Source: Candidatus Omnitrophota bacterium
GTDB taxonomy: Bacteria > Omnitrophota > Gorgyraeia > Tantalellales > Tantalellaceae
DNA: 64,000 nucleotides
Direction of reading: 5' to 3'
NCBI GenBank assembly: GCA_049643885.1
Contig: JBARQV010000015.1
Span: 75,430 to 139,429 of the forward strand
Below, one piece after another: positions 2,760 through 60,092 of this stretch; the stretch's first letter is position 1, and each line of letters starts with the position of its first letter. The notes below the pieces were generated by a model, which was given only the letters and a program-made list of their open reading frames with translations, was not told the origin of the DNA and did no database searches. Made by a program: the position numbers and the translations under genes.

Positions 2760-2897
2760 ATGTGGAAATATCTGATGTCCGTGAGAGAGAGGATCTTTCA
2801 AGCGGTTAAAAAAAAGGTGAGAGACGAGGTAAGGGTTATAGATAAATTCTACAAACAATATCATGACCAGACTTCTGCATTAGACAGTAAACGTTGA
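2760..2897 (+). CDS. possible small protein (45 aa), hypothetical
   Basis: ATG follows a GAGGTG Shine-Dalgarno at 7-nt spacing. An intrinsic terminator follows. The ORF is below the 60-aa cutoff of the supplied ORF track. Confidence 0.25.
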   Translation: MWKYLMSVRERIFQAVKKKVRDEVRVIDKFYKQYHDQTSALDSKR

Positions 2898-2963
2898 TGC
2901 GGGGAAAATACTGCCTTCGTGGACCGGGTTCGGCATGCGTGCCGGACCCGGAAAAATAAGAGA

Positions 2964-2991
2964 AACCGGGACCCGTTCCCGGTTTTTTTTG
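2964..2991 (+). terminator. intrinsic terminator (AACCGGG-ACCCGTT-CCCGGTT then T8), preceded by a second hairpin at 2919-2946
   Basis: 7-bp GC-rich stem followed by a U-tract. The upstream hairpin CCGGGTTCGGCA-TGCG-TGCCGGACCCGG shares the CCGG(G)ACCCG motif, so this could be an attenuator in the thyX leader. Confidence 0.6.
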
Positions 2992-3044
2992 TGCCTTGAA
3001 TGAAGCGCTGTTTAGGTGTAAAATAATTGGACAACGGAGGGATT

Positions 3045-4559
3045 ATGATGAAAGTGAATTTAGCTGGATACAATGTCGACACCACGGTTTTGCGTGAACT
3101 TGAGCAAAAGTACGGAAAGCGCGAAGACCTTACCCCGGAAGTCCTTTCGGCCGCTTATGCCCGTATCAGCCGGGATCCCAGGCCCATCGATGAGATCAGA
3201 AAAGACGCGCGGGAAGAAGTAGAAAAATCGAGGAGATCCAATTCTTCAATAATATTCAAGATGGGGCATCACTCTGTCGCTGAGCACGCTGTGTTTAACC
3301 TTGATATCCTGGGAGTTTCAAGATATGCGATGGAGGAGGTGGAAAAGTTCCGTCTTTGTTCCTACACTGAAAAATCACAAAGGTACATCACGCTCGACAA
3401 GGATTTCGTTATTCCCGAAGAGATCAAGGGGACCCGCCATGAGAAGACGTTTCTGGACATGATCCATGAACAGAACGAGGCATATTTTGAGCTGTACGAA
3501 AAACTCAAAGACTGGGTGTTCAAAAAACATCCCGAACTTGCCGCTGATCAGAAGAAGCATGATCTCCTTGAGGGGTGGGCAAAAGAGGACGCCCGCTATG
3601 TTACGGCGCTGGCAACGGAATCACAGGTAGGGCAGACGGTCAACGCCCGGAGTCTTGAACTCATGCTCAGGAGGTTCGCTTCTCACCCCCTGGAGGAAGT
3701 CCAGAAACTGGGCCGGAGGCTGTATGAAGAGATAGCCCACGTAGCGCCTTCTATTGTCATTTTTCATGAAGCTAACGACCGTGACCTTAAGACATATCCC
3801 GAGCTTAAGGAAACAACGCGAGAATTCATGCACGGCGTATCCGGATCTTCTTTTACCGGGGAAGAAGTCCGGTTGGTGGAATTCACAAAAAATGCCGATG
3901 ACGTGATCGCTTCTTCATTCGTGCACACTTCTTCGGGCGTGCCATATGAACGGTGCAAGGAACTGGTAAAGAACCTGACAGGGGAACAGAAAGCGGAGAT
4001 CTTTAAGGCCGCATGCCGGAACATGCAGTTTTACGATTCCATGCTGAGGGAATTCGAATACGCCGATCTTACCTTTAATATAGTACTTTCGGCTGCCTGT
4101 TTCGGTCAGCTGAAAAGGCACCGCATGTCCACTATCACTTCGCAACCTTATGACCCCGGGCTTGGTATTACTATTCCTGAATCGATAAAAGAGATCGAAA
4201 TGGAGAAGTATTTCCGGGGAATAGTCGACAGGACCAATGAGGTATATGAGCAAATAAACAAGGAGTTTCCCCTGGCAGCCCCATATATCCTCACCAATGC
4301 CCACCGGAAAAGGGTATTGATACGGCTGAACGCCAGGGAATTATACCATATATCCCGCCTGAGAGAAGACGCTCACGCGCAATGGGATATAAGGAACGTT
4401 TCCATGGCCATGACAGAGCATGCTAAAAAAGTCATGCCCCTGACCTTCGGGCTGGCAGGAGGCAAGGACAGGTATAGCGAGGTCTACCGGAATATTTACG
4501 GCCGGATCCCGAAGGCAACAGAAGCTATGCTGCCGGGCGTCAGGAACATAAAGACCTGA
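3045..4559 (+). CDS. thyX: flavin-dependent thymidylate synthase ThyX, tandem-duplicated (two ThyX domains in one chain)
   Basis: First half has HHSVAEH plus SYTEKSQRY, but KFR in place of RHR. Second half has RHRMSTITSQ(P)Y plus AHAQWDIR. The 510-aa length is consistent with fused ThyX domains. Start may be the ATG at 3045 or at 3048, after a GGAGGG Shine-Dalgarno. Confidence 0.8.
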   Translation: MMKVNLAGYNVDTTVLRELEQKYGKREDLTPEVLSAAYARISRDPRPIDEIRKDAREEVEKSRRSNSSIIFKMGHHSVAEHAVFNLDILGVSRYAMEEVEKFRLCSYTEKSQRYITLDKDFVIPEEIKGTRHEKTFLDMIHEQNEAYFELYEKLKDWVFKKHPELAADQKKHDLLEGWAKEDARYVTALATESQVGQTVNARSLELMLRRFASHPLEEVQKLGRRLYEEIAHVAPSIVIFHEANDRDLKTYPELKETTREFMHGVSGSSFTGEEVRLVEFTKNADDVIASSFVHTSSGVPYERCKELVKNLTGEQKAEIFKAACRNMQFYDSMLREFEYADLTFNIVLSAACFGQLKRHRMSTITSQPYDPGLGITIPESIKEIEMEKYFRGIVDRTNEVYEQINKEFPLAAPYILTNAHRKRVLIRLNARELYHISRLREDAHAQWDIRNVSMAMTEHAKKVMPLTFGLAGGKDRYSEVYRNIYGRIPKATEAMLPGVRNIKT

Positions 4560-4570
4560 CCAAATAAATC

Positions 4571-4975
4571 GTGCGCAAATTTGTTTTTTCTTTTATCGGA
4601 TGGCTTGAAGTCCTCATAGGGGTTCTAACCTTTACCGTCCTGCTTGTCATTCAGATATATCAGCCTAACGGCATTCCGGTCAAACCTTTAAATGTCTTCG
4701 TTTTTGTCATGGCCTCCGCAGTGGTTTCATTCGTGCTGGGCCTGGGACTCGTCTTTCATAAGGACTGGGCAAGCATCCTATTAATGTTCTTTTCGGGTTT
4801 TATCATGCTGGAAAAATTGCAGATATTCTCAGGCCTCCTGGCGTTCAAAGGCGAAATAATAACGGTAATACCGGTCCGGGTAAAAGATGTTATTTCATTT
4901 ATTTATCACACGGCGATCCTGGCATCGCTCTGGTATTTTAAATGTAATAGCAAGGAGGAAACAGATGCTTTCTAA
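4571..4975 (+). CDS. hypothetical integral membrane protein
   Basis: Four predicted transmembrane helices; GTG start. Confidence 0.45.
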   Translation: MRKFVFSFIGWLEVLIGVLTFTVLLVIQIYQPNGIPVKPLNVFVFVMASAVVSFVLGLGLVFHKDWASILLMFFSGFIMLEKLQIFSGLLAFKGEIITVIPVRVKDVISFIYHTAILASLWYFKCNSKEETDAF

Positions 4976-5321
4976 GTTACTCGGTATAATATGGATCTTA
5001 CTTGGCATACTGTGGCTTGTCGATCCGCAAAGGCTGAAGACCAGGCTTCAGGGGAAGATGAACCGCAAGATGAAACGGGTCGTATTCGGTTTTATACTGG
5101 TGTTCGGACTCCTCATGATCGGGAGCGTTTTCAGGACTTCCGGGATCCTGCCTAAGATCATCGGGATAGCGGGGATGGTCCTTGTAATAAAAGGCATTAT
5201 TTTGATCACGTCAAAGACGTCAGATAAGATCTTTGAGTGGCTGGGAAGCAGGTCGCTCAAATACTTCAGGATATGGGCGCTGGTCCTATTGGCGCTCGGT
5301 CTCATGATGATATTCGCGTAA
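4965..5321 (+). CDS. hypothetical integral membrane protein
   Basis: AGGAGG Shine-Dalgarno precedes the ATG at 4965. Product is hydrophobic. The supplied ORF starts upstream at 4887, but the internal start has the better ribosome-binding site. Confidence 0.45.
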   Translation: MLSKLLGIIWILLGILWLVDPQRLKTRLQGKMNRKMKRVVFGFILVFGLLMIGSVFRTSGILPKIIGIAGMVLVIKGIILITSKTSDKIFEWLGSRSLKYFRIWALVLLALGLMMIFA

Positions 5322-5339: not shown

Positions 5340-6173
5340 ATGGCGGTGAAAATTTTTATTACCTGCATCACGGTATTCTTCTTGGCCGGCAATGTATTTT
5401 GCCAGACAGAGGAGATGGAGGTTAAAGTCTTCAGATTGGATCACAGGGAGGCAAGGTCCATGCTCCCGGCCGTGGAACACTTGAAAAGCGGCGAAGGCAA
5501 AGTCACTGTCGATCAAAACTCCAACAGCCTGATCGTTGTCGATCTTCCGGAGAACCTGGAAAGGATAGCTGAAGTCATCAGCATGCTTGACGTTGCACAG
5601 AAAGAGGTCCGTATAAACGTGACCGTTGCGGAAGTCACTGACGCCTTTCTTGGAAAGATCGGAATGGTTTCAGGCCAGGCGATCATCCCGGAAGACAGGC
5701 TCTCGGAGATACAGTACCTGGTCAATACCAGCGAGGATACCAATGTCATCACGGAGATGTCGTTAAGAACTTTAAGCGGTCAGACGGCTAAGCTCCAGGT
5801 AGCCCGTGAGGAGATCCTCTGGGGTGTTACATCCACGCCTGAAGGTAGCACGATAACCGTTTCGCCCGCGGGGATAAGAGCCGCTGGCAGTTTTTTGGAG
5901 ATCTTTCCGAATGTCAACAGAGACGGGTCGATCACAATAACCCTTATGCCGTCAGTGAGCGAATTTGTGGATGAAAGGACTACGCAAAAGAGGGAGGTCA
6001 TTGCCAGCGTGGTCGTTAATAGCGGGGACACGATAGCTCTCGGGGGGTTGAAATCGTCAAAAAGACGTACCAGGCAGGAAAGGATACCTCTTACCGAGCT
6101 TTCCCTGCCCGAGAAGTTCACCGAAGAGGCGCGGATAATGGTCATGTTTCTTACTGCGTCAGTTATAGAATAG
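5340..6173 (+). CDS. minimal secretin-family outer-membrane channel (signal peptide + one secretin-N domain + secretin domain)
   Basis: Secretin-N-like VKVFRLDHREARSMLP...SNSLIVVDLPENLERIAEVISMLD. Secretin core SGQTAKLQVAREE ... VVVNSGDTIALGGL ... IPL...LP ... IMVMFLTASVI. Only 277 aa. Confidence 0.6.
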   Translation: MAVKIFITCITVFFLAGNVFCQTEEMEVKVFRLDHREARSMLPAVEHLKSGEGKVTVDQNSNSLIVVDLPENLERIAEVISMLDVAQKEVRINVTVAEVTDAFLGKIGMVSGQAIIPEDRLSEIQYLVNTSEDTNVITEMSLRTLSGQTAKLQVAREEILWGVTSTPEGSTITVSPAGIRAAGSFLEIFPNVNRDGSITITLMPSVSEFVDERTTQKREVIASVVVNSGDTIALGGLKSSKRRTRQERIPLTELSLPEKFTEEARIMVMFLTASVIE

Positions 6174-6231: not shown

Positions 6232-6264
6232 TTGACATTTATCTTCTAATAAGGGTATTATAAT
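6232..6264 (+). promoter_or_regulatory. sigma70-type promoter, TTGACA-N18-TATTAT (TATAAT overlapping)
   Basis: Perfect -35 hexamer at 6232-6237 and -10 at 6256-6264. Lies about 50 nt upstream of the tubulin-like gene's Shine-Dalgarno/ATG. Confidence 0.55.
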
Positions 6265-6314
6265 TTTGTTAATTCGGCTGTAATGATCACTTGATAAACT
6301 CAAGGAGGAGCAAA

Positions 6315-7586
6315 ATGGCAGGAGCGAAGAAGAAAAAGGCAAAAAAAGCGACATCCAGAAAATCAAAAGCTTCAAAACCAAAAACCAGAAAATCAACATT
6401 TAAGAAGTCCGCAACTGCAAAATCAGCCACCAGGAAAAGAGCCGGGAAGTCATCGGTCGATATCTTCGAAAGCGTGAACGTCCCTACGCTCGAACTTGAA
6501 GAGTATGAACCCAGGATGGCTCACGAAGACGCGGTAGAAGATGTTATCGGCGGATCGACTCATTACGCGTGGGTAGGTTCGGGACAGTGCGGCGGCAGGA
6601 TCGTGAAATCGTTCTATGAGCTTGGGTACAGAAAATCCCTTGCCGTAAATACAACTCACCACGACCTGGATCTTTTAGAGCTGCCCAACAACCAGAAGTT
6701 CTTAATGGACATCGGAGAAATGGGCGCCGGCAAAGATATGAGCCGGGGCAAAGAAGCGGCGAACCGCTACCAGCAGGAGATCATCCACATGAAAGGAAAG
6801 ATCTTCGGTTCCCAGATCAATCACATCATGGTCAGTTTCGGAGCCGGCGGCGGTACCGGAAGCGGAAGCGCTACTAAACTTGTAGAGATAGCCAAAAAGT
6901 ACGCCCGCCATATCGGTATAGGCAATCCGGATAAACGCGTAGGCGTAGTCCTGACGCTGCCGACCGTGGGTGAAGCAAGTTCTCCACTGGTATCGCAGAA
7001 CACTTACAACGTAGTTTCAGAGCTGGGCCAGATGGCAATGGAGGGAAAACTTTCCCCGCTGGTGATCATCGACAACGAAAAGATCAGCAAGATGTATCCC
7101 GGCCTGACCGTCAAGACCTTCTGGTCGACCATAAACAATACCGTAGCAGGCCTGTTCGACATATTCAACAGGCTCAGCGCGTTAAGCAGCGAGTACACGT
7201 CGTTTGATACCGTGGATTACCACAGCATCATGGAAGCCGGCGGCTGCGCGATAATGGGTCTTACGAAAGTGACCGAGATCAAAGACAAGTTCGCTTTGTC
7301 GACGGCCGTGAAGAACAACCTGCAAAAGACACTGCTTGCGGACGGGTTCGATCTGGCCTCCGCTAAAGTTGCCGGATGTATAGTGGTCGGCGGGCGCGAT
7401 TTGATGGCAAACGTACCGGGTCTGCAGGACAACATCAACTACGCGTTTGACGTCCTGTCGGATATAACCGGGAAGGCGACCGTCCACAGAGGGATCTATG
7501 AGGATAATAAGGATTCCCTTAGGGTGTACACCATAATCGGCGGTCTTGATCTTCCCACCCGAAGGCTTGCTGAGTTCAAGGCGTAA
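6315..7586 (+). CDS. tubulin/CetZ-like GTPase (FtsZ-tubulin superfamily) with an N-terminal Lys/Ala-rich basic tail
   Basis: T1 loop GSGQCGGRI resembles tubulin GQCGNQ and CetZ GQAGG. Tubulin signature GAGGGTGSG is present. IIDNEKI resembles tubulin DNEA rather than FtsZ PND. T7/H8 region SFDTVDYHSIMEAGGCAIMG aligns with FtsZ NVDFADVRTVMSEMGYAMMG. Residues 2-50 are AGAKKKKAKKATSRKSKASKPKTRKS... AAGGAGG Shine-Dalgarno 5 nt before the ATG at 6315. Confidence 0.8.
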   Translation: MAGAKKKKAKKATSRKSKASKPKTRKSTFKKSATAKSATRKRAGKSSVDIFESVNVPTLELEEYEPRMAHEDAVEDVIGGSTHYAWVGSGQCGGRIVKSFYELGYRKSLAVNTTHHDLDLLELPNNQKFLMDIGEMGAGKDMSRGKEAANRYQQEIIHMKGKIFGSQINHIMVSFGAGGGTGSGSATKLVEIAKKYARHIGIGNPDKRVGVVLTLPTVGEASSPLVSQNTYNVVSELGQMAMEGKLSPLVIIDNEKISKMYPGLTVKTFWSTINNTVAGLFDIFNRLSALSSEYTSFDTVDYHSIMEAGGCAIMGLTKVTEIKDKFALSTAVKNNLQKTLLADGFDLASAKVAGCIVVGGRDLMANVPGLQDNINYAFDVLSDITGKATVHRGIYEDNKDSLRVYTIIGGLDLPTRRLAEFKA

Positions 7587-7610
7587 AAGGGTTGAACTTT
7601 GTAGTGAAAA

Positions 7611-7652
7611 GGGGCGGTTCCGAAATCGAGTTCGGATCCGCCCTTTTTTTAT
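7611..7652 (+). terminator. intrinsic terminator (13-bp stem GGGCGGTTCCGAA/TTCGGATCCGCCC followed by T7ATTTT)
   Basis: Strong GC stem and U-tract directly after the tubulin-like gene stop. Confidence 0.8.
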
Positions 7653-7698
7653 TTTCGCTGGGTTAAAGATGAGTTATAATTAAAACCAGGAGGGTAAA

Positions 7699-8073
7699 GT
7701 GCGGAAGTTCCTTATATTCATATGTGCGGTCACCGTTTTAAGTTTCTTTTTGCCCGGGATGGTCCATTCCGAGTCGCTGGAAGAATTGAGGGCCAGGGTG
7801 AGGGGCGAAGTCAGGGAAGAGATGGGGATAAAAGAGCCCGCTAAATCCGAGCCCAGAGAAGAAGGAAAAGAAGATTTTATCAGGAGCAAACAGGATATAA
7901 TCATCCAATCGGTATTGATCCTGATGATCCTGGCGATGATCCCGGCTACCATAGCCAAGATCAAGGGGCGGAGTTTTATCGCCTGGTGGGTCCTCGGTGT
8001 ATTATTTTTTATCATTGTCTTTCCCGTTTCGGTATATATAAAGAAATTGCCTCAAAAAAATGCTCAACCATAA
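7699..8073 (+). CDS. hypothetical small secreted/membrane protein (signal peptide, acidic middle, C-terminal transmembrane hairpin)
   Basis: GTG start. Overlaps the larE start by 14 nt. Confidence 0.4.
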   Translation: MRKFLIFICAVTVLSFFLPGMVHSESLEELRARVRGEVREEMGIKEPAKSEPREEGKEDFIRSKQDIIIQSVLILMILAMIPATIAKIKGRSFIAWWVLGVLFFIIVFPVSVYIKKLPQKNAQP

Positions 8074-8893
8074 AAAAGCGGCGAAATACGGTCTTCTTGA
8101 GGATATCCTGAAAGACATGGAAAGCGCGGTCGTTGCTTTCTCCGGCGGCGTGGACAGCACTTTTCTCCTCAAGGCTGCGTCCCTGGTTTTAAAAGATAAG
8201 GTCATGGCGGTCACCGCGCGTTCTCCCATTCGATGCAGGGAGGAACTTGAAAGGGCCGGACGGATCGCCGCCGGATTCGGCGTCAGACACATGATTTTAG
8301 ATTTTCCCGGACTTGAAGATAAAAACCTGGCCAATAATTCGATCGAAAGATGTTATCACTGCAAGAAGAAGCTTTTGACAAGGCTGGCAGAGGTCGCTGG
8401 GGAACATGGGTTTAATCACGTCGCGGAAGGGTCTAACGCGGATGACGATAAGAGTTTCAGGCCCGGATCAAAAGCCATAAAAGAACTCAAGGTAAGAAGC
8501 CCCTTGAAAGAAGCCGGCTTTTCAAAAAACGATATACGGACTTTTTCAAAAGAGATGGGACTCGAGACCTGGGATGCTTCTCCGCAAAGCTGCCTTTTGA
8601 CGAGGTTCCCTTATGATGAAAAAGTATCTGCTCTGGACCTGGAGAGGGTCGGGGAAGCGGAACGCTTTCTGGCCGGCTTGGGTTTCAGGCAGGTCAGGGT
8701 CCGCGTCTATGGCGACCTGGCAAGGATCGAAGTCCCTCTTCAAACGATAGGCGCGGCTGCGGATAAAGGCCCTTCCGAAAAAATAATCAAAAAATTGAAA
8801 GCGCTGGGCTATAAATATATTACGCTTGACCTGGAAGGATACAGGACAGGAAGCATGGATCATGGAACAGAGGCGAAAGACAGGCATGGATAG
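8060..8893 (+). CDS. larE: LarE, ATP-dependent sacrificial sulfur transferase (PP-loop ATPase) for nickel-pincer nucleotide cofactor
   Basis: PP-loop SGGVDS; conserved Cys in SPQSCLLTRFP; about 277 aa. Confidence 0.8.
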   Translation: MLNHKKAAKYGLLEDILKDMESAVVAFSGGVDSTFLLKAASLVLKDKVMAVTARSPIRCREELERAGRIAAGFGVRHMILDFPGLEDKNLANNSIERCYHCKKKLLTRLAEVAGEHGFNHVAEGSNADDDKSFRPGSKAIKELKVRSPLKEAGFSKNDIRTFSKEMGLETWDASPQSCLLTRFPYDEKVSALDLERVGEAERFLAGLGFRQVRVRVYGDLARIEVPLQTIGAAADKGPSEKIIKKLKALGYKYITLDLEGYRTGSMDHGTEAKDRHG

Positions 8894-9632
8894 GGAAAAA
8901 ATAAAGAATATATTAAACGACGTGAAAAGCGGTGATGTCGGGATAGACCAGGCCCTGGAAGCCTTCAAGGGGTTCCCATATGACGATATAGGTTTCGCCA
9001 AAATAGACACGCACCGTGACTTGAGGAAAGGTTTTCCGGAAGTGATCTTTTGCGAAGGCAAGACGCTCAAACAGGTGACAGGCATTTTTACAAAAAGCAG
9101 ACACTCCAAGGCGATAATGGCCACCAGGGCCAACCGTGGGATATATAATGCCATAAAGAAAGTAAAAAAAGACGCTGTATATTATAAAGATGCCAGGATC
9201 GTATTTTCCGGCAAGAAAAGAAGAAAAGAAGGGGGGAAAATACTGGTCGTAAGTGCGGGGACCGCTGATATTCCGGTCGCTGAAGAGGCCGCGGTGACCG
9301 CCGAGATCACGGGTAATCCGGTGGAGCGGGTCTATGATATCGGGGTCGCGGGGATCCATAGGGTATTTTCAAACCGCAAGAAGTTGACAGCCGCCAATGT
9401 GCTCATCGTGGTCGCAGGCATGGAAGGGGCCTTGGCCAGCATAGTAGGAGGGCTGGTGGCTCGCCCCGTTATTGCGGTGCCTACCAGTGTGGGATACGGC
9501 GCGAATTTTAAGGGACTGGCTCCGCTTCTTGCGATGCTGAACTGTTGCGCTCCCGGGGTCGCGGTAGTGAATATCAATAACGGGTTCGGCGCGGGTTACA
9601 TGGCCGGCCTTATAAACAGGGCGGGGGAATAG
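8886..9632 (+). CDS. larB: LarB, pyridinium-3,5-biscarboxylic acid mononucleotide synthase (PurE-like carboxylase/hydrolase)
   Basis: PurE-like C-terminal half ILVVSAGTADIPVAEEA...VIAVPTSVGYG...VNINNGFGAGY. ATG overlaps the larE stop by 8 nt (ATGGATAG). Supplied ORF starts further upstream at 8826. Confidence 0.8.
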   Translation: MDREKIKNILNDVKSGDVGIDQALEAFKGFPYDDIGFAKIDTHRDLRKGFPEVIFCEGKTLKQVTGIFTKSRHSKAIMATRANRGIYNAIKKVKKDAVYYKDARIVFSGKKRRKEGGKILVVSAGTADIPVAEEAAVTAEITGNPVERVYDIGVAGIHRVFSNRKKLTAANVLIVVAGMEGALASIVGGLVARPVIAVPTSVGYGANFKGLAPLLAMLNCCAPGVAVVNINNGFGAGYMAGLINRAGE

Positions 9633-53924: not shown

Positions 53925-54968
53925 ATGAAAATAATATCTGTTGCCAATCAAAAAGGCGGGTGCGGCAAAACTACGTTGGCAATTAACATCTCCGCGGCTT
54001 TATCCAAACTCGGGAACGAGACGCTTCTAATAGATCTCGACCCACAGGCACATGCGACGTATGCCATGGGGTTTGGCAAGGAGTCGTCAAGCTTCAAGAC
54101 TTCTTATGATATTTTCCGCGCTCATTTTGATTCAAGCGCAATACCGTTCGATGATATTATCTTGACCGGCAGGGATAAGCTGTCCTTTATGCCCGCGAAT
54201 ATGCTTCTCAGCGCGGCGGAGATCAATCTTGGAGGAGTGAACGGCGCCGCGGCCATATTGTCCAGGACTCTATCCGATCCTTTTTTCGAGAGATACGAAT
54301 ACGTGGTCATCGATTCTCCGCCGAGTTTCGGGTTTTTGACCTTGAATTCGATGTACGCGGCGGATATGATCCTTGTTCCGTTGGATCTAGGTTATTTCGC
54401 GCTTAACAGCGTGAACAGCGTGTACAGGGTGACCAGCCTGTTGAACTCTGAAACCGGAAGGGAACCTTCGGTGTTTTTCGTCCTTAACCTGTTTGACGGA
54501 CGCTCGAATTTTTCCAGGAATCTGGAAAACGATGCCCGGAAAAAGCTAGGCCAGTATCTTCTTTCGACAAGGGTCCGATCAAGCGTGAGGATCAGAGAGG
54601 CCGCCCAGTTCGGCCAGACGATATTCGAATATGCGCCGAAATCCAAGCCCGCGCTGGATTTTTATGACTTGACCAGCGAGATCATGACTATTAGGAATAA
54701 AGATATCAACATGAGCGTAAAGGAGTTTTTCGTTCAGGCGCCTCAAGCCGATGAGGTATATGTGCTCGGAGATTTTAACGGGTGGCAGAAATCGCCGGTA
54801 AGCCGTCTCACCAGGCTTGGGAACGGGAATTGGGCGGCGCATATCATGCTGGATAGGGGTAAATACAGGTACAAATATCTGGTCGACGATCAGTGGACCC
54901 ATGATGTCAGTAATCCCCTTAAAGAGATCAATTCTTTCGGAAGCATCGATTCCATAGTGGAAGCTTAG
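53925..54968 (+). CDS. ParA/MinD-family ATPase fused to C-terminal CBM48 (AMPK-beta glycogen-binding) domain
   Basis: Deviant Walker A KGGCGKTT. C-terminal EVYVLGDFNGWQK...YKYLVDDQWTHDVSNP aligns closely with AMPK-beta GBD (GSFNNW...YKFFVDGQWTHDPSEP). Confidence 0.8.
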   Translation: MKIISVANQKGGCGKTTLAINISAALSKLGNETLLIDLDPQAHATYAMGFGKESSSFKTSYDIFRAHFDSSAIPFDDIILTGRDKLSFMPANMLLSAAEINLGGVNGAAAILSRTLSDPFFERYEYVVIDSPPSFGFLTLNSMYAADMILVPLDLGYFALNSVNSVYRVTSLLNSETGREPSVFFVLNLFDGRSNFSRNLENDARKKLGQYLLSTRVRSSVRIREAAQFGQTIFEYAPKSKPALDFYDLTSEIMTIRNKDINMSVKEFFVQAPQADEVYVLGDFNGWQKSPVSRLTRLGNGNWAAHIMLDRGKYRYKYLVDDQWTHDVSNPLKEINSFGSIDSIVEA

Positions 54969-56759: not shown

Positions 56760-58322
56760 ATGGCGAAGAAGATCCGCGAATCATGGGGGACACGCCTGGG
56801 AGTCGTAATGGCCGTGGCAGGATCGGCCGTCGGGCTCGGGAACTTTTTGCGTTTTCCGGTCCAGGCCGCTAAAAACGGCGGCGGCGCTTTCATGATCCCG
56901 TATTTTGTAGCCCTTTTATTGGTGGGGATACCGCTCATGTGGATCGAATGGTCCATAGGCCGGTACGGGGGAGGATTCGAGCATTCTACTGCCCCGGGAG
57001 TTTTCCACAGCCTCTGGAAAAAGAGCCGGTTCATCAAGTACTTCGGGGTCATAGGCATCTTCGGGCCCCTGGTCATCATGATCTATTACACCTATATCGA
57101 ATCCTGGACCCTGGCGTACAGTTTCTTCGCTTTTACCGGGAAATACGCAAGCCTGACCGACCAGTCGTCCATGGAAGCCTTCCTTGCCGGTTTTCAGGGC
57201 CTGGCGAAGAATGAGTATTTTTCAAGCATAGCCACCGCTTATTTTTTCTTCCTGATAACGTTTGTCCTGAACATGACCGTTCTGTATTACGGGATCCGGG
57301 GCGGTATCGAGAAGTTCTGCAAGTTCGCCATGCCCACGCTGTTCATCTTCGCGATCATACTGGCTGTGAGGGTTTTGACCCTCGGGACACCGGACCAGGC
57401 CAAACCGGCATGGAATGTTTTTAACGGTCTCGGGTATTTATGGAATCCGGATTTTTCGAGACTCAAAGAAGCTAAGGTGTGGTTAGCGGCGACCGGGCAG
57501 ATATTTTTCACTTTAAGCGTGGGGATCGGCGTCATACTCACGTACGCAAGTTATCTCAAAAAAGGTGATGACGTCGCCTTGTCAGGCCTGACCGCCGTGA
57601 GCATGAACGAGACCGCGGAGGTTGTCCTTGGAGGAAGCATCGTCATCCCGGCTGCTTTCATGTTTTTCGGCCCGATGGCGATAGGGACGATAGCGAATTC
57701 AGGCGCTTTTAATCTGGGCTTCGTGACAATGCCTTTGATCTTCGGCCATATGCCTTTTTCTGGAGTTTTCGGATTCTTATGGTTCGGCCTTTTATTTCTC
57801 GCGGGTGTTACGTCTTCTGTATCACTGGCGCAACCGGCGATAGCGTTCCTGGAGGATGAGTTCGATATATCCAGGGAAAAAGCCGTGATGCTTTTCGGGC
57901 TGGTTACCTTTGTTCTCTGCAATGCGGCGATATTTTTTCTCGGCAAGGGTGTTGTAGATGAGCTGGATTTCTGGGGAGGGACTTTTTGCCTGGTGCTTTT
58001 CGCCACAATAGAGGTTATACTGTTCGGATGGATATTCGGAATAGAAAAAGCCTGGGAAGAAGTTCACCACGGCGCCGATATGAGGATCCCGGGGATCTAT
58101 AAATATATCATTAAGTACGTCACTCCTTGTTTTCTTCTGGCTGTCCTTATCGCCTGGTTTTTCCAGGACTGGCTGCCTATAATCAGGATGGAAAACGTGC
58201 CGGCGGAGAACGCCAATTATATTTTAGCCACACGGATAGGGCTTATGTTGCTTTTTGCCGGCCTCGCGGCCATGGTAAAGATCGCATGGAAGAAGAGAAA
58301 GATAAAAGGGAAACCGGTATGA
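56760..58322 (+). CDS. sodium-dependent transporter, neurotransmitter:sodium symporter (NSS/SNF) family
   Basis: N-terminal GTRLGVVMAVAGSAVGLGNFLRFP NSS signature. 12 transmembrane segments. Confidence 0.85.
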   Translation: MAKKIRESWGTRLGVVMAVAGSAVGLGNFLRFPVQAAKNGGGAFMIPYFVALLLVGIPLMWIEWSIGRYGGGFEHSTAPGVFHSLWKKSRFIKYFGVIGIFGPLVIMIYYTYIESWTLAYSFFAFTGKYASLTDQSSMEAFLAGFQGLAKNEYFSSIATAYFFFLITFVLNMTVLYYGIRGGIEKFCKFAMPTLFIFAIILAVRVLTLGTPDQAKPAWNVFNGLGYLWNPDFSRLKEAKVWLAATGQIFFTLSVGIGVILTYASYLKKGDDVALSGLTAVSMNETAEVVLGGSIVIPAAFMFFGPMAIGTIANSGAFNLGFVTMPLIFGHMPFSGVFGFLWFGLLFLAGVTSSVSLAQPAIAFLEDEFDISREKAVMLFGLVTFVLCNAAIFFLGKGVVDELDFWGGTFCLVLFATIEVILFGWIFGIEKAWEEVHHGADMRIPGIYKYIIKYVTPCFLLAVLIAWFFQDWLPIIRMENVPAENANYILATRIGLMLLFAGLAAMVKIAWKKRKIKGKPV

Positions 58323-58423
58323 ACGCGATGGGTTGGGCATTTCTTTTTATATCATGGTTGTGCATAGCAGGCCTGGTGTGCTTTTGTTTCATAAGCATAT
58401 TCCGGAGGAGGAAAATAGATTAG
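58319..58423 (+). CDS. small (34 aa) single-TM protein translationally coupled to the NSS gene (ATGA overlap)
   Basis: MNAMGWAFLFISWLCIAGLVCFCFISIFRRRKID. Small membrane subunits commonly follow sodium:solute symporters. Confidence 0.4.
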   Translation: MNAMGWAFLFISWLCIAGLVCFCFISIFRRRKID

Positions 58424-58514
58424 ATATTAATATTATATATAATATTTGCATTTCGCGATGAATTCATATATTATTACTATATATAATTAAAAATCCCTGA
58501 AAAAGGAGGAACAT

Positions 58515-58748
58515 ATGGAAAAAGACGTCGCAGTGTTTGAAAAGAATAAATACCAGGACGTGAAGATTCGAATATCGGAATATCAGGGAAACGATGTTAT
58601 CGATATCAGGATCTGGACCCAGCCGCCGCAGGGAGGCGAAAAAGTTCCTACAGGCAAGGGAGTAAACATCAATATCAAGCTTTTCCCGAAGCTGAAGGAA
58701 GCGGTTGAAAAGTTGGAGAAGGATCTTAAAGAAAGCAATATGCTTTAA
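58515..58748 (+). CDS. PC4/p15-like ssDNA-binding small protein
   Basis: FEKNKYQDVKIRISEYQGNDVIDIRIW...KGVNINI matches the bacterial PC4-domain pattern. AAAAGGAGG Shine-Dalgarno. Confidence 0.6.
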   Translation: MEKDVAVFEKNKYQDVKIRISEYQGNDVIDIRIWTQPPQGGEKVPTGKGVNINIKLFPKLKEAVEKLEKDLKESNML

Positions 58749-58789
58749 TGAAGCATAGATGTAAAACCGTTCTGTTGGCAAGGATTTAA

Positions 58790-59224
58790 ATGCATAGACA
58801 GGAAAGGAGACGTTATGTAAGGCATCTTCTCGTTCAGCCTTTGGAATTCCAGGTTTCAGTAGGAGAACCGGAGAAAACCGAGACCATAGACTTAAGCGAG
58901 GGAGGGCTTTTATTCACCTCAAAGAAAAACGTAGCTCCGGGAACAGTAATAAAGATACAGATGCCATTGTATGAAAAAGTCTTCAATATCAAAGCCAAGG
59001 TAGTCCATTCAAGAAAAGACATTTCATCCGAACTCTTCAATATAGGCGTTACATTTCTGGAATATTCCGACGCTTTCAAAGTCAAACTGATAGAGCAGAT
59101 ATACCTGATAGAAGAATACCGGGTCCTTCGTTCCCTGCAGATGGGCAAGGAAATGTCCCTTCGCGAAGCCTCAAAGGAATGGATAAAAAGATATTCCGAA
59201 AGATTCGAGAGGCTTTACTGGTAG
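58790..59224 (+). CDS. PilZ-domain protein (putative c-di-GMP receptor)
   Basis: RRRYVRH ... DLSEGGLLF (RxxxR and DxSxxG PilZ motifs). Confidence 0.7.
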   Translation: MHRQERRRYVRHLLVQPLEFQVSVGEPEKTETIDLSEGGLLFTSKKNVAPGTVIKIQMPLYEKVFNIKAKVVHSRKDISSELFNIGVTFLEYSDAFKVKLIEQIYLIEEYRVLRSLQMGKEMSLREASKEWIKRYSERFERLYW

Positions 59225-59373
59225 CATAAGCGCTACGATCACTTCTCTATAATCCCTGATTTTCAAAAAAAGTCAAAAAAATCTTTTCCACAACATCAAG
59301 TATTTAGTAATTTTTAGTAAGCAATATGTTGTAGACTTTCTAAAAATATTTAAAATGTCGGCGAAAACCGTAT

Positions 59374-59402
59374 TTGACAAACATATATGCATTGTGTATA
59401 CT
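59374..59402 (+). promoter_or_regulatory. sigma70 promoter TTGACA-N17-TATACT (mraZ/dcw promoter)
   Basis: Consensus hexamers with 17-nt spacer, 40 nt upstream of mraZ. Confidence 0.65.
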
Positions 59403-59414
59403 CGCTAGATGTGT

Positions 59415-59440
59415 AGTGGAAAAAAGTGGAGGAAAGTAGA
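59415..59440 (+). promoter_or_regulatory. three direct repeats AGTGGA-N4-AGTGGA-N4-AGTAGA at 10-nt phasing (candidate MraZ operator)
   Basis: MraZ is known to bind phased GTGG(G/A) direct repeats between its promoter and start codon. Confidence 0.45.
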
Positions 59441-59881
59441 GTGTTTTACGGAGAATACTCACATAGCATTGATAAGAAAGGGCGGATCATAATTCCGTCC
59501 AAATTCCGTGATATCATACAGGAAATGTGCATCGAAAAAATGTATATCACACGTGGGTTGGATGAGTGTCTGTTCATGTTTTCAGAGAGTGAATGGAAGG
59601 CCCAGGAAAGCAAATTTAAATCTTTGTCTTTCACTAAACGGGAAGCCAGAAAGTTTAACCGTTTTTTCTTTTCCGGGGCGGTAGAGGCTGTTCTCGATAA
59701 GCAGTGGAGGGTGCTCTTGCCCGATTATCTGAGGAATTACGCGAAGCTGTCCAGGCAGATAGTCATTGTCGGCGTGTCTAACAGGATAGAGATCTGGGAC
59801 AAAGGTAAATGGGAAGAGTTTTACAAATCGTCCAAACAGAATTACGAAGAGATCGCTGAACGTTTAATGGACCTCGAATAA
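59441..59881 (+). CDS. mraZ: division/cell-wall cluster transcriptional regulator MraZ
   Basis: GTG start giving MFYGEYSHSIDKKGR. Two DxxxR/KGR SpoVT-AbrB-like halves. GGAGGA Shine-Dalgarno 8 nt upstream. Confidence 0.8.
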   Translation: MFYGEYSHSIDKKGRIIIPSKFRDIIQEMCIEKMYITRGLDECLFMFSESEWKAQESKFKSLSFTKREARKFNRFFFSGAVEAVLDKQWRVLLPDYLRNYAKLSRQIVIVGVSNRIEIWDKGKWEEFYKSSKQNYEEIAERLMDLE

Positions 59882-59900
59882 TTACTTTAAGGGGGGAGTC

Positions 59901-60092
59901 ATGTACAGGCGATGTGCTATCAAATTTAACAGGAAAAAGGTCGAGTTCATCGATTGTGTTAATCTGGTAGAAAGGGTCAAAAGGGCAAGGGCCTTGCCGT
60001 CTGGCGTCGAGCATCTTGGCATAAGGCGTTTTCAGATCCATTCATCGGAATTCGGGAATAAGACCTATTATATGATGAGAGATTGTCTATGA
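59901..60092 (+). CDS. small hypothetical ORF inserted between mraZ and rsmH
   Basis: Strong GGGGGGAG Shine-Dalgarno 5 nt before the ATG. 63 aa, Cys/Arg-rich. No recognisable domain. Confidence 0.35.
   Translation: MYRRCAIKFNRKKVEFIDCVNLVERVKRARALPSGVEHLGIRRFQIHSSEFGNKTYYMMRDCL

Follow-up and report, generated by a model that had tools for sequence, protein, structure and literature searches.

TubZ/RepX and CetZ are the described members of the tubulin/FtsZ superfamily that most resemble the protein reported here. TubZ/RepX proteins (4ei7, 3m8k, 4xcq) belong to type III partition systems of Bacillus and Clostridium plasmids and prophages, in which a basic C-terminal tail contacts the complex of TubR with DNA. 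A gene for about 100 residues precedes tubZ in pBsph and in Alicyclobacillus (Firmicutes), and this is also seen with gp138 of phage G. CetZ proteins (4b46, 4b45, 3zid) are the archaeal products of stand-alone chromosomal genes and are described as controlling archaeal cell shape. We analyzed a 64,000-nucleotide stretch of a Candidatus Omnitrophota genome (assembly GCA_049643885.1, contig JBARQV010000015.1, positions 75,430 to 139,429; hereafter the window) that carries, on its forward strand, a gene for a 423-residue GTPase of this superfamily with a TubZ/CetZ-like core and a polybasic N-terminal tail. The protein belongs to a clade of Omnitrophota and Planctomycetota proteins whose nearest outside relatives are encoded by uncultivated tailed phages. 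We give roughly even chances to the reading that it is a domesticated phage-type cytomotive filament, chromosomal and stand-alone, that is tethered to DNA by its tail. The clade is a new family and a new architecture within the superfamily. Neither it, nor its tail, nor the related phage group is described in the literature searched, which spans part of the journals, so that an earlier description is possible; all three are absent from the superfamily surveys PMC9871819 (Santana-Molina et al. 2023), PMC2875224 (Makarova and Koonin 2010), and PMC7824862 (Iyer et al. 2021).

TubZ is about 20-26% identical to the window protein, and the two share the IDN(A/E)K form of the T6 motif and a GL.LP..R motif at the start of the last helix. 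TubZ is carried by mobile elements, as are relatives of the window protein. The window gene itself, however, is chromosomal and stand-alone, with no TubR-like gene found upstream and no iteron centromere or repeat array found at the locus, and its product has an N-terminal tail and no C-terminal one. CetZ has GQAGG in the T1 loop where the window protein has GQCGG, and the sequence match to CetZ1 (4b46) spans the GTPase domain only, residues 78-190 of the window protein. CetZ is archaeal, whereas the clade is bacterial and has phage-borne relatives; we know of no CetZ with a polybasic N-terminal tail. Canonical FtsZ is distinguished by the T1 sequence GGGGGN, a linker with a conserved C-terminal peptide, and a position in the division and cell wall (dcw) cluster, while the window protein has neither linker nor peptide and is encoded outside dcw. 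Compared with eukaryotic tubulins, BtubA/B, and the Odin/Asgard tubulins, the window protein has no match to their PDB sequences at E <= 0.01, no Tubulin_C match, and no adjacent paralogue pair. PhuZ, jumbo-phage tubulins, and Bacillus phage G gp138 are phage-encoded members of the same superfamily; PhuZ-type proteins carry an acidic C-terminal tail, whereas the phage relatives of the clade carry an acidic N-terminal motif and form a separate, uncultivated group. FtsZl1/Tubulin_2 proteins, like the window clade, are divergent superfamily members reported in Planctomycetes. FtsZl1 has the N-terminal FtsZ-like domain only, with a coiled coil and then a helical domain at the C terminus, and is found in operons with vWA, kinase, or GTPase genes (PMC2875224), in contrast to the stand-alone window gene and its complete two-domain core of ~400 residues.

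The GTPase core is complete and TubZ/CetZ-like

The Pfam Tubulin family (PF00091) matched residues 86-261 with 46.6 bits against a cutoff of 33 (E 6.3e-12). Tubulin_2 reached 25.9 bits, just under its cutoff of 27, over residues 162-245 only, and TubZ-like_C, which is recorded for some homologues, scored just below threshold. Neither the FtsZ_C domain nor the tubulin C-terminal domain of Pfam was matched, and the NCBIfam equivalog for FtsZ, TIGR00065, gave 55.6 bits against a cutoff of 295.2. Searching the PDB with the single sequence returned RepX/TubZ as the best match (1.4e-10), then archaeal FtsZ (4e-10). A profile of 47 family sequences returned CetZ1 (7e-11), RepX/TubZ (2e-10), Methanocaldococcus (M.) jannaschii FtsZ (1e-8), and phage c-st TubZ (2e-8), with no tubulin or BtubA/B match at E <= 0.01. 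Structural comparison of an AlphaFold2 model with solved proteins scored 30.4 for TubZ/RepX (4ei7), 28.1 and 26.6 for CetZ (3zid and 4b45), 26.0 for Bt TubZ (3m8k), 24.9 for phage c-st TubZ (4xcq), 24.3 for FtsZ (2vaw), 21.6 for BtubA (2bto), about 21 for tubulins, and 18-19 for PhuZ. TubZ and CetZ are thus nearer than FtsZ to the model by structure, the plasmid-partition TubZ being the best solved match and CetZ the second.

The window protein is best described as TubZ/CetZ-like and not as tubulin-like in the strict sense. An earlier reading of the letters and open reading frames (the sequence-only reading) had named it tubulin/CetZ-like; the likeness to CetZ held, while the likeness to tubulin proper found no match to tubulin or BtubA/B. 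That reading had also set the protein apart from canonical FtsZ, with which the TIGR00065 score and the missing FtsZ_C match agree. It had suggested profile searches and a phylogeny, and these placed the protein within PF00091, outside the FtsZ equivalog, and, in the tree described below, with phage proteins. We therefore rejected canonical FtsZ as the family (TIGR00065 far under its cutoff, no detection by tblastn with E. coli FtsZ), membership in tubulin or BtubA/B (no family-profile match, weaker structural match), FtsZl1/Tubulin_2 (architecture, gene context, and sub-threshold score), and a classical TubZRC partition locus (TubR-like gene and iterons not found).

The motifs that had been noticed from the letters are all present: GSGQCGGRI at residues 88-96, GAGGGTGSG at 176-184, IIDNEKI at 251-257, and the T7/H8 segment SFDTVDYHSIMEAGGCAIMG at 296-315. 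They are invariant or nearly so among 47 aligned homologues, with complete invariance at G88, G90, Q91, C92, G93, G94, G176-G182, and G184, and further at D253, N254, F297, D298, D301, and Y302. The T6 motif DNEK falls within the GTP-binding domain, and the T7 stretch aligns with the stretch 'nvDfaDvkavm' of M. jannaschii FtsZ. D298 and D301 are predicted to be the catalytic acidic residues that insert into the GTP site of the next subunit. The protein has the two-domain tubulin/FtsZ fold, with a Rossmann-like GTPase domain, the central helix H7, and an activation domain, and bears the T1, T4, and T7 motifs; the proposal that both domains are present was correct. Invariance of the T1, T4, T6, and T7 residues across the 47 homologues supports an intact active site, and from the nucleotide-binding loops and T7 aspartates the window protein is apparently a complete and active superfamily member. 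In the AlphaFold2 model the core, residues 80-423, is confident, with a predicted local distance difference test (pLDDT) score of mostly 75-94, and helix 413-422, part of the folded domain, closes the chain without a C-terminal linker or tail.

Just ahead of the core lies a short acidic linker motif, in which P57, L59, L61, and E62 are invariant and Y64 and E65 nearly so in the 47 homologues. The family consensus is LPTLDLEQYEP, and the counterpart in distant representatives of the phage-encoded relatives reads IPDLPLEDFE.

A polybasic N-terminal tail marks the clade

The first 47 residues contain 16 lysines and 4 arginines and no aspartate or glutamate, as the sequence-only reading had described. 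The model gives residues 1-69 as disordered (pLDDT about 40). The DNA coding for the tail contains a degenerate 30-nt internal duplication at 6335-6394, and no comparable K/R-rich, acid-free segment occurs in any other real gene of the 64-kb window. Whether related genomes keep the tail had been posed as a check, and they do: across 159 proteins of the clade it is a conserved trait, by charge and not by sequence. Tail length ranges from 6 to 353 residues (median 94), with a median net charge of +28 and a pooled composition of K 24%, A 14%, T 14%, R 11%, S 10%, P 6%, and D+E 2.5%. Tails are often built of tandem repeats such as PKATKKRTTSK. Motifs of the form [ST]P[KR][KRA] occur 133 times, compared with 39.8 +/- 5.7 in shuffled tails, a 3.3-fold enrichment.

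We liken the tail to histone H1 from the general composition of H1 proteins. The resemblance to the H1 C-terminal domain and to bacterial H1-like tails is one of composition, SPKK-like motifs, and disorder only, and here the tail is N-terminal and fused to a tubulin-fold GTPase. The statement that such a tail is foreign to TubZ, CetZ, PhuZ, and BtubA/B holds for the solved proteins compared.

Several metagenome-assembled genomes (MAGs) carry two or three paralogues on different contigs, each with a different N-terminal module, which may be a polybasic tail, almost nothing, or a Cys-rich segment (..ELIRAIQKAEG..C..C..). The Cys-rich module, of ~65 residues with the pattern ..G(I/L)xPxxMxExELIxAIQxAEG..C..C..C, replaces the polybasic tail in paralogues from planctomycetal MAGs, at loci L039 and L051 and in proteins P0069, P0087, P0122, and P0190. 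It had no Pfam match, and by eye it resembles a helix-extension-helix nucleic-acid-binding motif. Two representatives, P0121 and P0122 (601-624 residues, 62-63% identity), carry an AAA_lid_14 domain and a weak Fis-type helix-turn-helix C-terminal to the tubulin core; this AAA+ lid extension may be a true fusion or an artefact of gene calling or assembly.

Distribution of the clade and its phage-encoded relatives

A word-indexed search in which 8000 candidates were scored gave 955 proteins at E <= 0.001. Clade members are 55-86% identical and lie on chromosomal contigs of Omnitrophota and Planctomycetota (Phycisphaerae/Sedimentisphaerales) MAGs, and nearly all of them retain the T1 loop G[AST]GQCGG. 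All carriers are MAGs, the majority under the labels Phycisphaerae, Sedimentisphaerales, Anaerohalosphaeraceae, or Planctomycetota, with some automatic 'Pirellulales' labels and a few Omnitrophota. The window protein is 100% identical to P0001, 'hypothetical protein WBD24_02045' of Candidatus Omnitrophota MAG GCA_049644745.1. Between Omnitrophota and Planctomycetota the tubulin-like protein is 65-73% identical, whereas the MurC encoded by the same genome shares 50-70% identity with its counterparts in other Omnitrophota and about 40-43% with the most distant homologues listed (MurC-MurB-fusion types and unnamed sequences, their phyla not determined). This comparison implies either very strong constraint or a fairly recent transfer between the two phyla. 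The JGI annotation of clade members is 'cell division GTPase FtsZ', and NCBI calls some of them 'FtsZ/tubulin family protein'.

Two facts could not be seen from the letters of the window: the clade is mainly planctomycetal, and its closest outside relatives are phage-encoded. An exhaustive HMMER search of 1.84 billion cluster representatives recovered 1119 relatives at E <= 0.001, 220 of them below 1e-30. Only four representative clusters exceeded 60% identity, and the remainder formed a continuous series from 50% down to 30%, most of these more distant proteins having acidic N-termini with the IPDLPLEDFE-type motif and no basic tail. Phage context was evident for several. P0124 (48% identity) has a T4-type portal gene as well as Mor and HU-like genes for neighbours, the 159-kb contig of P0130 bears a fused RNA polymerase beta/beta' gene, and P0240 adjoins a gene for a 3051-residue SNF2-plus-intein protein and a topoisomerase IB gene. 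IMG/VR held at least 80 loci, all with <= 50% identity, and in many the tubulin gene is 1-3 genes downstream of the large terminase gene and a portal-sized gene of 659 codons. Among deposited phages and plasmids, only relatives of <= 25% identity were found; gp138 of Bacillus phage G, at 24%, was the sole match among the deposited phages. The best BFVD match was an 'uncultured Caudovirales phage FtsZ' (E 8.6e-28, 25% identity). In PHROGs the window protein was unmatched, and a few relatives weakly matched phrog_17961, which has no function assigned there.

The phage group itself comprises uncultivated tailed phages from IMG/VR and Logan (L087-L169), on contigs of up to 230 kb; L110, for example, has its large terminase gene at 2805-4634 and its tubulin gene at 8001-9077. 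An intein that carries a LAGLIDADG homing endonuclease interrupts some of the phage-type tubulins (P0128, P0176, P0221, and others, of ~800-980 residues), ~45 aligned positions before the GGGTG signature motif; the Pfam matches are from P0128. A 55%-identical homologue also occurs, together with a gene of the T4-type portal family, on contig CAZQMI010000017.1 (L086), labelled 'uncultured Thermoplasmatales archaeon'; the contig probably comes from a phage and was placed in an archaeal MAG by binning.

We built a neighbour-joining tree of 237 sequences over 343 columns, with E. coli FtsZ as the root, and ran 60 bootstrap replicates on a subset of 105 sequences. The cellular clade was monophyletic in 57/60 replicates and nested among viral or unassigned sequences in 60/60. 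We regard the tree as indicative, not decisive.

The gene is chromosomal and stand-alone

GTDB species genomes yielded 75 apparently cellular loci, L086, the 76th, having proved viral. Phage hallmark genes were present in the fetched flanks of 0/75 cellular loci, compared with 49/83 viral loci. Two carrier contigs are complete chromosomes, of 3.0 and 5.3 Mb. In the window the neighbours are a gene for a secretin-like protein (5340-6173) before, and a small membrane open reading frame and then larE/larB/larC after, with ThyX, a sigma-70 factor, and PPDK further upstream. Five other lineages have unrelated housekeeping genes as neighbours, and in each a long spacer on either side sets the gene apart as a stand-alone unit. 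Clustering of all open reading frames of the 75 cellular loci revealed no conserved partner gene. The sole recurrent neighbour was an accD-like gene at 13 of the 75, which probably reflects shared synteny within one planctomycetal lineage. The housekeeping context and the uniform G+C of the window led us to reject a prophage or plasmid origin for the locus. Collectively, the housekeeping neighbours, the lack of hallmark genes at any of the 75 loci, and the <= 50% identity of all IMG/VR relatives argue that the clade is cellular and neither viral nor plasmid-borne.

The dcw cluster and the position of ftsZ

The tubulin-like gene lies ~53 kb upstream of mraZ, and the window ends with mraZ, rsmH, and ftsI. 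Beyond the window the contig continues ftsI-murE-murF-mraY-murD-ftsW-murG-murC-murB-ddl-ftsQ-ftsA, then a 128-bp gap and proC-yggT-DUF167-PNP-ileS. The sequence-only reading had presumed a canonical ftsZ downstream of this cluster and, with it, that the window gene is an additional paralogue. Contrary to that presumption, no ftsZ follows ftsA at the dcw locus of this contig, which was followed via FtsI and MurC with the genome elsewhere not scanned. As the cluster ends with ftsQ-ftsA and runs into proC, the status of an additional FtsZ paralogue is unproven for this genome. A missing ftsZ at the dcw locus is no proof of an FtsZ-less genome. Two other lineages likewise have a dcw cluster without ftsZ, one represented by a relative with 60% identity in MurC and the other by Ca. 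Aadella gelida (49% in MurC); in all, three Omnitrophota lineages have dcw ending ftsQ-ftsA (347-350 residues) and then proC (L170:13875-16643; L171, L172, L174-L176). A tblastn search with E. coli FtsZ gave no match in the window or in any fetched locus. Published surveys are mixed: FtsZ was found in one of three Omnitrophota genomes in 2016 (PMC5147048), and an eggNOG-based profile of reference complete genomes (PMC12283558) reports high conservation of the dcw genes in Omnitrophota. For Planctomycetota, Phycisphaerae included, reports agree that ftsZ is lacking, and ftsA and ftsB are likewise reported missing.

Possible function and alternative explanations

Since the nearest sequence relatives are the tubulins of uncultivated tailed phages, the simplest reading is that a phage tubulin was captured and fixed by cells. 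In the DNA-tethered filament that we propose, the core would bind GTP via the intact T1-T6 loops and the subunits would polymerise head-to-tail. GTP would be hydrolysed once D298 and D301 in the T7 loop complete the active site of the neighbouring subunit, which would produce a dynamic cytomotive filament. The disordered H1-like tail would project from each subunit and, through non-specific binding of a polyanion, tether the polymer, most likely to chromosomal DNA. Classical TubZ systems use a separate TubR adaptor and a centromere, for which the tail would thereby stand in. Growth and shrinkage of the filament might then organise or move the nucleoid.

Several points weigh against this proposal. 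That the protein polymerises and hydrolyses GTP is predicted from the sequence, as are the ligand of its tail and its role in the cell, and the mean pLDDT of the AlphaFold2 model is only 74.6. Anionic membranes, RNA, or polyphosphate are equally conceivable ligands of the tail, which might instead modulate the bundling of filaments. Forms of 394 residues within the clade are nearly tailless, starting MAKKSGKNRKE, so that a long tail is not essential to the function of the core. In the tree, the whole family was split from Firmicutes TubZ in only 25/60 replicates. CetZ, tubulin, and PhuZ sequences were left out of it, and its topology may be distorted by rate differences. The direction of transfer, from phage to cell or from cell to phage, is not proven.

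The main rival, which we consider unlikely, is a membrane-tethered division or cell-shape filament that replaces or supplements FtsZ. Here the tail would be an anchor for anionic phospholipids, doing the job of FtsA, SepF, or ZipA, and where canonical FtsZ is lacking the filament would direct constriction or the synthesis of the envelope. This would suit a clade whose members are mostly from Planctomycetota MAGs (Phycisphaerae, Sedimentisphaerales, Anaerohalosphaeraceae), a phylum reported to lack ftsZ, ftsA, and ftsB, and also the dcw clusters that run through ftsQ-ftsA-proC without ftsZ here and in two other Omnitrophota lineages. E. coli FtsZ matches nothing in the window or fetched loci, the very high sequence conservation suits an essential role, and CetZ, the second structural neighbour, offers by analogy a possible part in cell shape. 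However, at none of the loci is the gene linked to dcw, to mreB, or to any other division gene. The ftsZ-free dcw also occurs in Ca. Aadella gelida, irrespective of the presence of the gene, and few Omnitrophota loci carry it, so that the absence of ftsZ from dcw is not specifically tied to the tubulin-like gene. The searches for FtsZ were confined to the window, the dcw loci, and the fetched loci, not whole genomes, and no cultured Phycisphaerae isolate is among the matches. A tail that runs to 100-350 residues, lacks any hydrophobic or amphipathic element, and is rich in SPKK-like motifs resembles a nucleic-acid binder more than a membrane anchor. Overall, the taxonomic distribution makes the membrane-tethered filament attractive, but it agrees less well with how long the tail is, with its composition, and with a gene unlinked to division genes.

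Alternatively, the core may act as proposed while the tail regulates the polymer, through bundling or condensation, through binding of RNA or polyphosphate, or by pairing in cis or in trans with the acidic linker PTLELEEYEP. The extreme variation in tail length (6-353 residues) and sequence, with charge alone kept, is typical of entropic or electrostatic regulators, the conserved acidic segment follows the tail directly, and paralogues within one MAG bear different N-terminal modules. Against this, the acidic motif is kept in phage relatives that have no basic tail and hence does not need one, and the SPKK-like enrichment points to DNA; we judge a purely regulatory tail improbable. There is very little likelihood that the gene belongs to a prophage or other mobile element and serves its positioning or partition, as TubZ or PhuZ do. 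The nearest extra-clade relatives do sit on phage-like contigs near a large terminase or portal gene, and the best-matching solved structure is a plasmid-partition TubZ. The window gene, however, lies in DNA of uniform G+C among PPDK, a sigma-70 factor, ThyX, and larE/B/C, and the contexts vary by lineage and are all housekeeping, on chromosomes of up to 5.3 Mb. No phage hallmark family occurs in the 75 cellular flanks, neither a TubR-like gene nor iterons were found, and 55-86% identity is held across two phyla. That the protein is simply this organism's own, highly diverged FtsZ is harder still to credit. The JGI label and the canonical ftsZ not seen after ftsA in the contig would favor it, but TIGR00065 gives 55.6 bits against a cutoff of 295 and FtsZ_C is unmatched. 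The C-terminal linker and FtsA-binding peptide are absent, the chain ending in a helix of the domain, tblastn with E. coli FtsZ misses the protein, TubZ and CetZ are structurally nearer, and the protein groups with phage proteins in the tree.

The clade is a concrete candidate for a cytoskeletal role in Phycisphaerae/Sedimentisphaerales and in some Omnitrophota. Its polycationic H1-like tail at the N terminus of a tubulin fold is a new architecture that may dispense with the separate DNA adaptor of TubZ systems. The clade also indicates a likely exchange of a cytoskeletal protein between phage and cell, the counterpart being a large group of uncultivated phage tubulins encoded near packaging genes. 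A bolder version, which we regard as doubtful, is that a phage-derived tubulin domesticated in the Planctomycetes-Verrucomicrobia-Chlamydiae (PVC) superphylum became essential for chromosome segregation or cytokinesis in FtsZ-less planctomycetes of the Phycisphaerae type, and possibly in some Omnitrophota, with the H1-like tail coupling the filament to the nucleoid. If true, this would help to explain division in some FtsZ-less planctomycetes and would give a core cytoskeletal system a virus-to-cell origin. Automatic 'FtsZ' labels (JGI, COG-type) in PVC metagenomes can conceal a different protein.

Features of the locus and neighboring genes

The open reading frame on the plus strand spans 6291..7586. 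We chose the ATG at 6315 as the likely start over the upstream TTG at 6291 because of the placement of the Shine-Dalgarno sequence and because homologues start MA(K/Q)K; the 423-residue product begins MAGAKKKK. Upstream, in the 141-bp gap downstream of the secretin-like gene, a promoter-like site matches the consensus at 11/12 positions, with a perfect -35 box and TATTAT instead of TATAAT at -10. Matches of such quality occur 2.7 times per region in shuffled sequence, so that a promoter of the tubulin-like gene is plausible from the consensus match alone and unproven. The intrinsic terminator folds at -27.9 kcal/mol (z = -5.35), and 0/200 shuffles fold as well. Its stem has an internal mismatch and was therefore missed by a simple terminator scan and recovered by folding. 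The sequence-only reading had proposed a monocistronic gene with a perfect TTGACA promoter and a strong terminator. The own promoter-like site and the terminator agree with a monocistronic gene, the strength of the terminator is confirmed, and for the promoter the perfect -35 box stands, with the -10 box and the standing of the promoter itself qualified as above. The coordinates of the features are collected in Table 1.

Table 1. Positions of the tubulin-like gene, its expression signals, and the parts of its product in the window
Feature	Coordinates	Strand	Basis
Sigma-70-type promoter-like site	6232..6261	+	TTGACA 6232-6237, 18-nt spacer, TATTAT 6256-6261
Shine-Dalgarno AAGGAGGA	6302-6309	+	5 nt before ATG; read from sequence
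Coding sequence, 423-residue tubulin/FtsZ-superfamily GTPase of TubZ/CetZ-like clade	6315..7586	+	Profile, sequence, and structure comparisons
Polybasic disordered tail, residues 1-47	6315..6455	+	Composition, pLDDT about 40
Acidic linker motif PTLELEEYEP, residues 57-66	6483..6512	+	Conservation; low-confidence region of model
GTP-binding (Rossmann-like) domain, residues 84-262	6564..7100	+	PF00091 residues 86-261, invariant columns, model secondary structure
T1 loop GSGQCGG	6576-6596	+	Inside GTP-binding domain
T4 GAGGGTGSG	6840-6866	+	Inside GTP-binding domain
C-terminal (activation) domain, TubZ-like	7167..7583	+	Ends in helix 413-422
T7 loop and H8 start, SFDTVDYHSI	7200..7229	+	Invariant D298, D301
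Intrinsic terminator, G+C-rich hairpin (7606-7649) then U-run	7606..7655	+	Folding

The gene directly upstream (5340-6173, plus strand) encodes a short secretin-like protein of 277 residues with a Secretin_N and a partial Secretin domain. It is preceded by two small membrane open reading frames (4571-4975 and 4887-5321), and this layout is kept in four independent assemblies of the organism. Further upstream, at 3027-4559 on the plus strand, the two Thy1 stretches of a 510-residue ThyX make it a duplicated or tandem flavin-dependent thymidylate synthase, and a small GIY-YIG gene lies upstream of it in the contig (L001:6097-6369). Toward the other end of the window, the 2 kb from 58001 to 60000, just upstream of mraZ, have a G+C of 0.41, compared with 0.47-0.51 elsewhere, and contain small PC4-like and PilZ genes (L005:7131-7840). 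At 53925-54968 on the plus strand, a gene encodes an ATPase of the ParA/MinD type with a glycogen-binding module (AMPK1_CBM / CBM48) fused to its C terminus. This gene adjoins one for a GH130 mannoside phosphorylase, and the joining of a positioning ATPase to a carbohydrate-binding domain is an unusual pairing.

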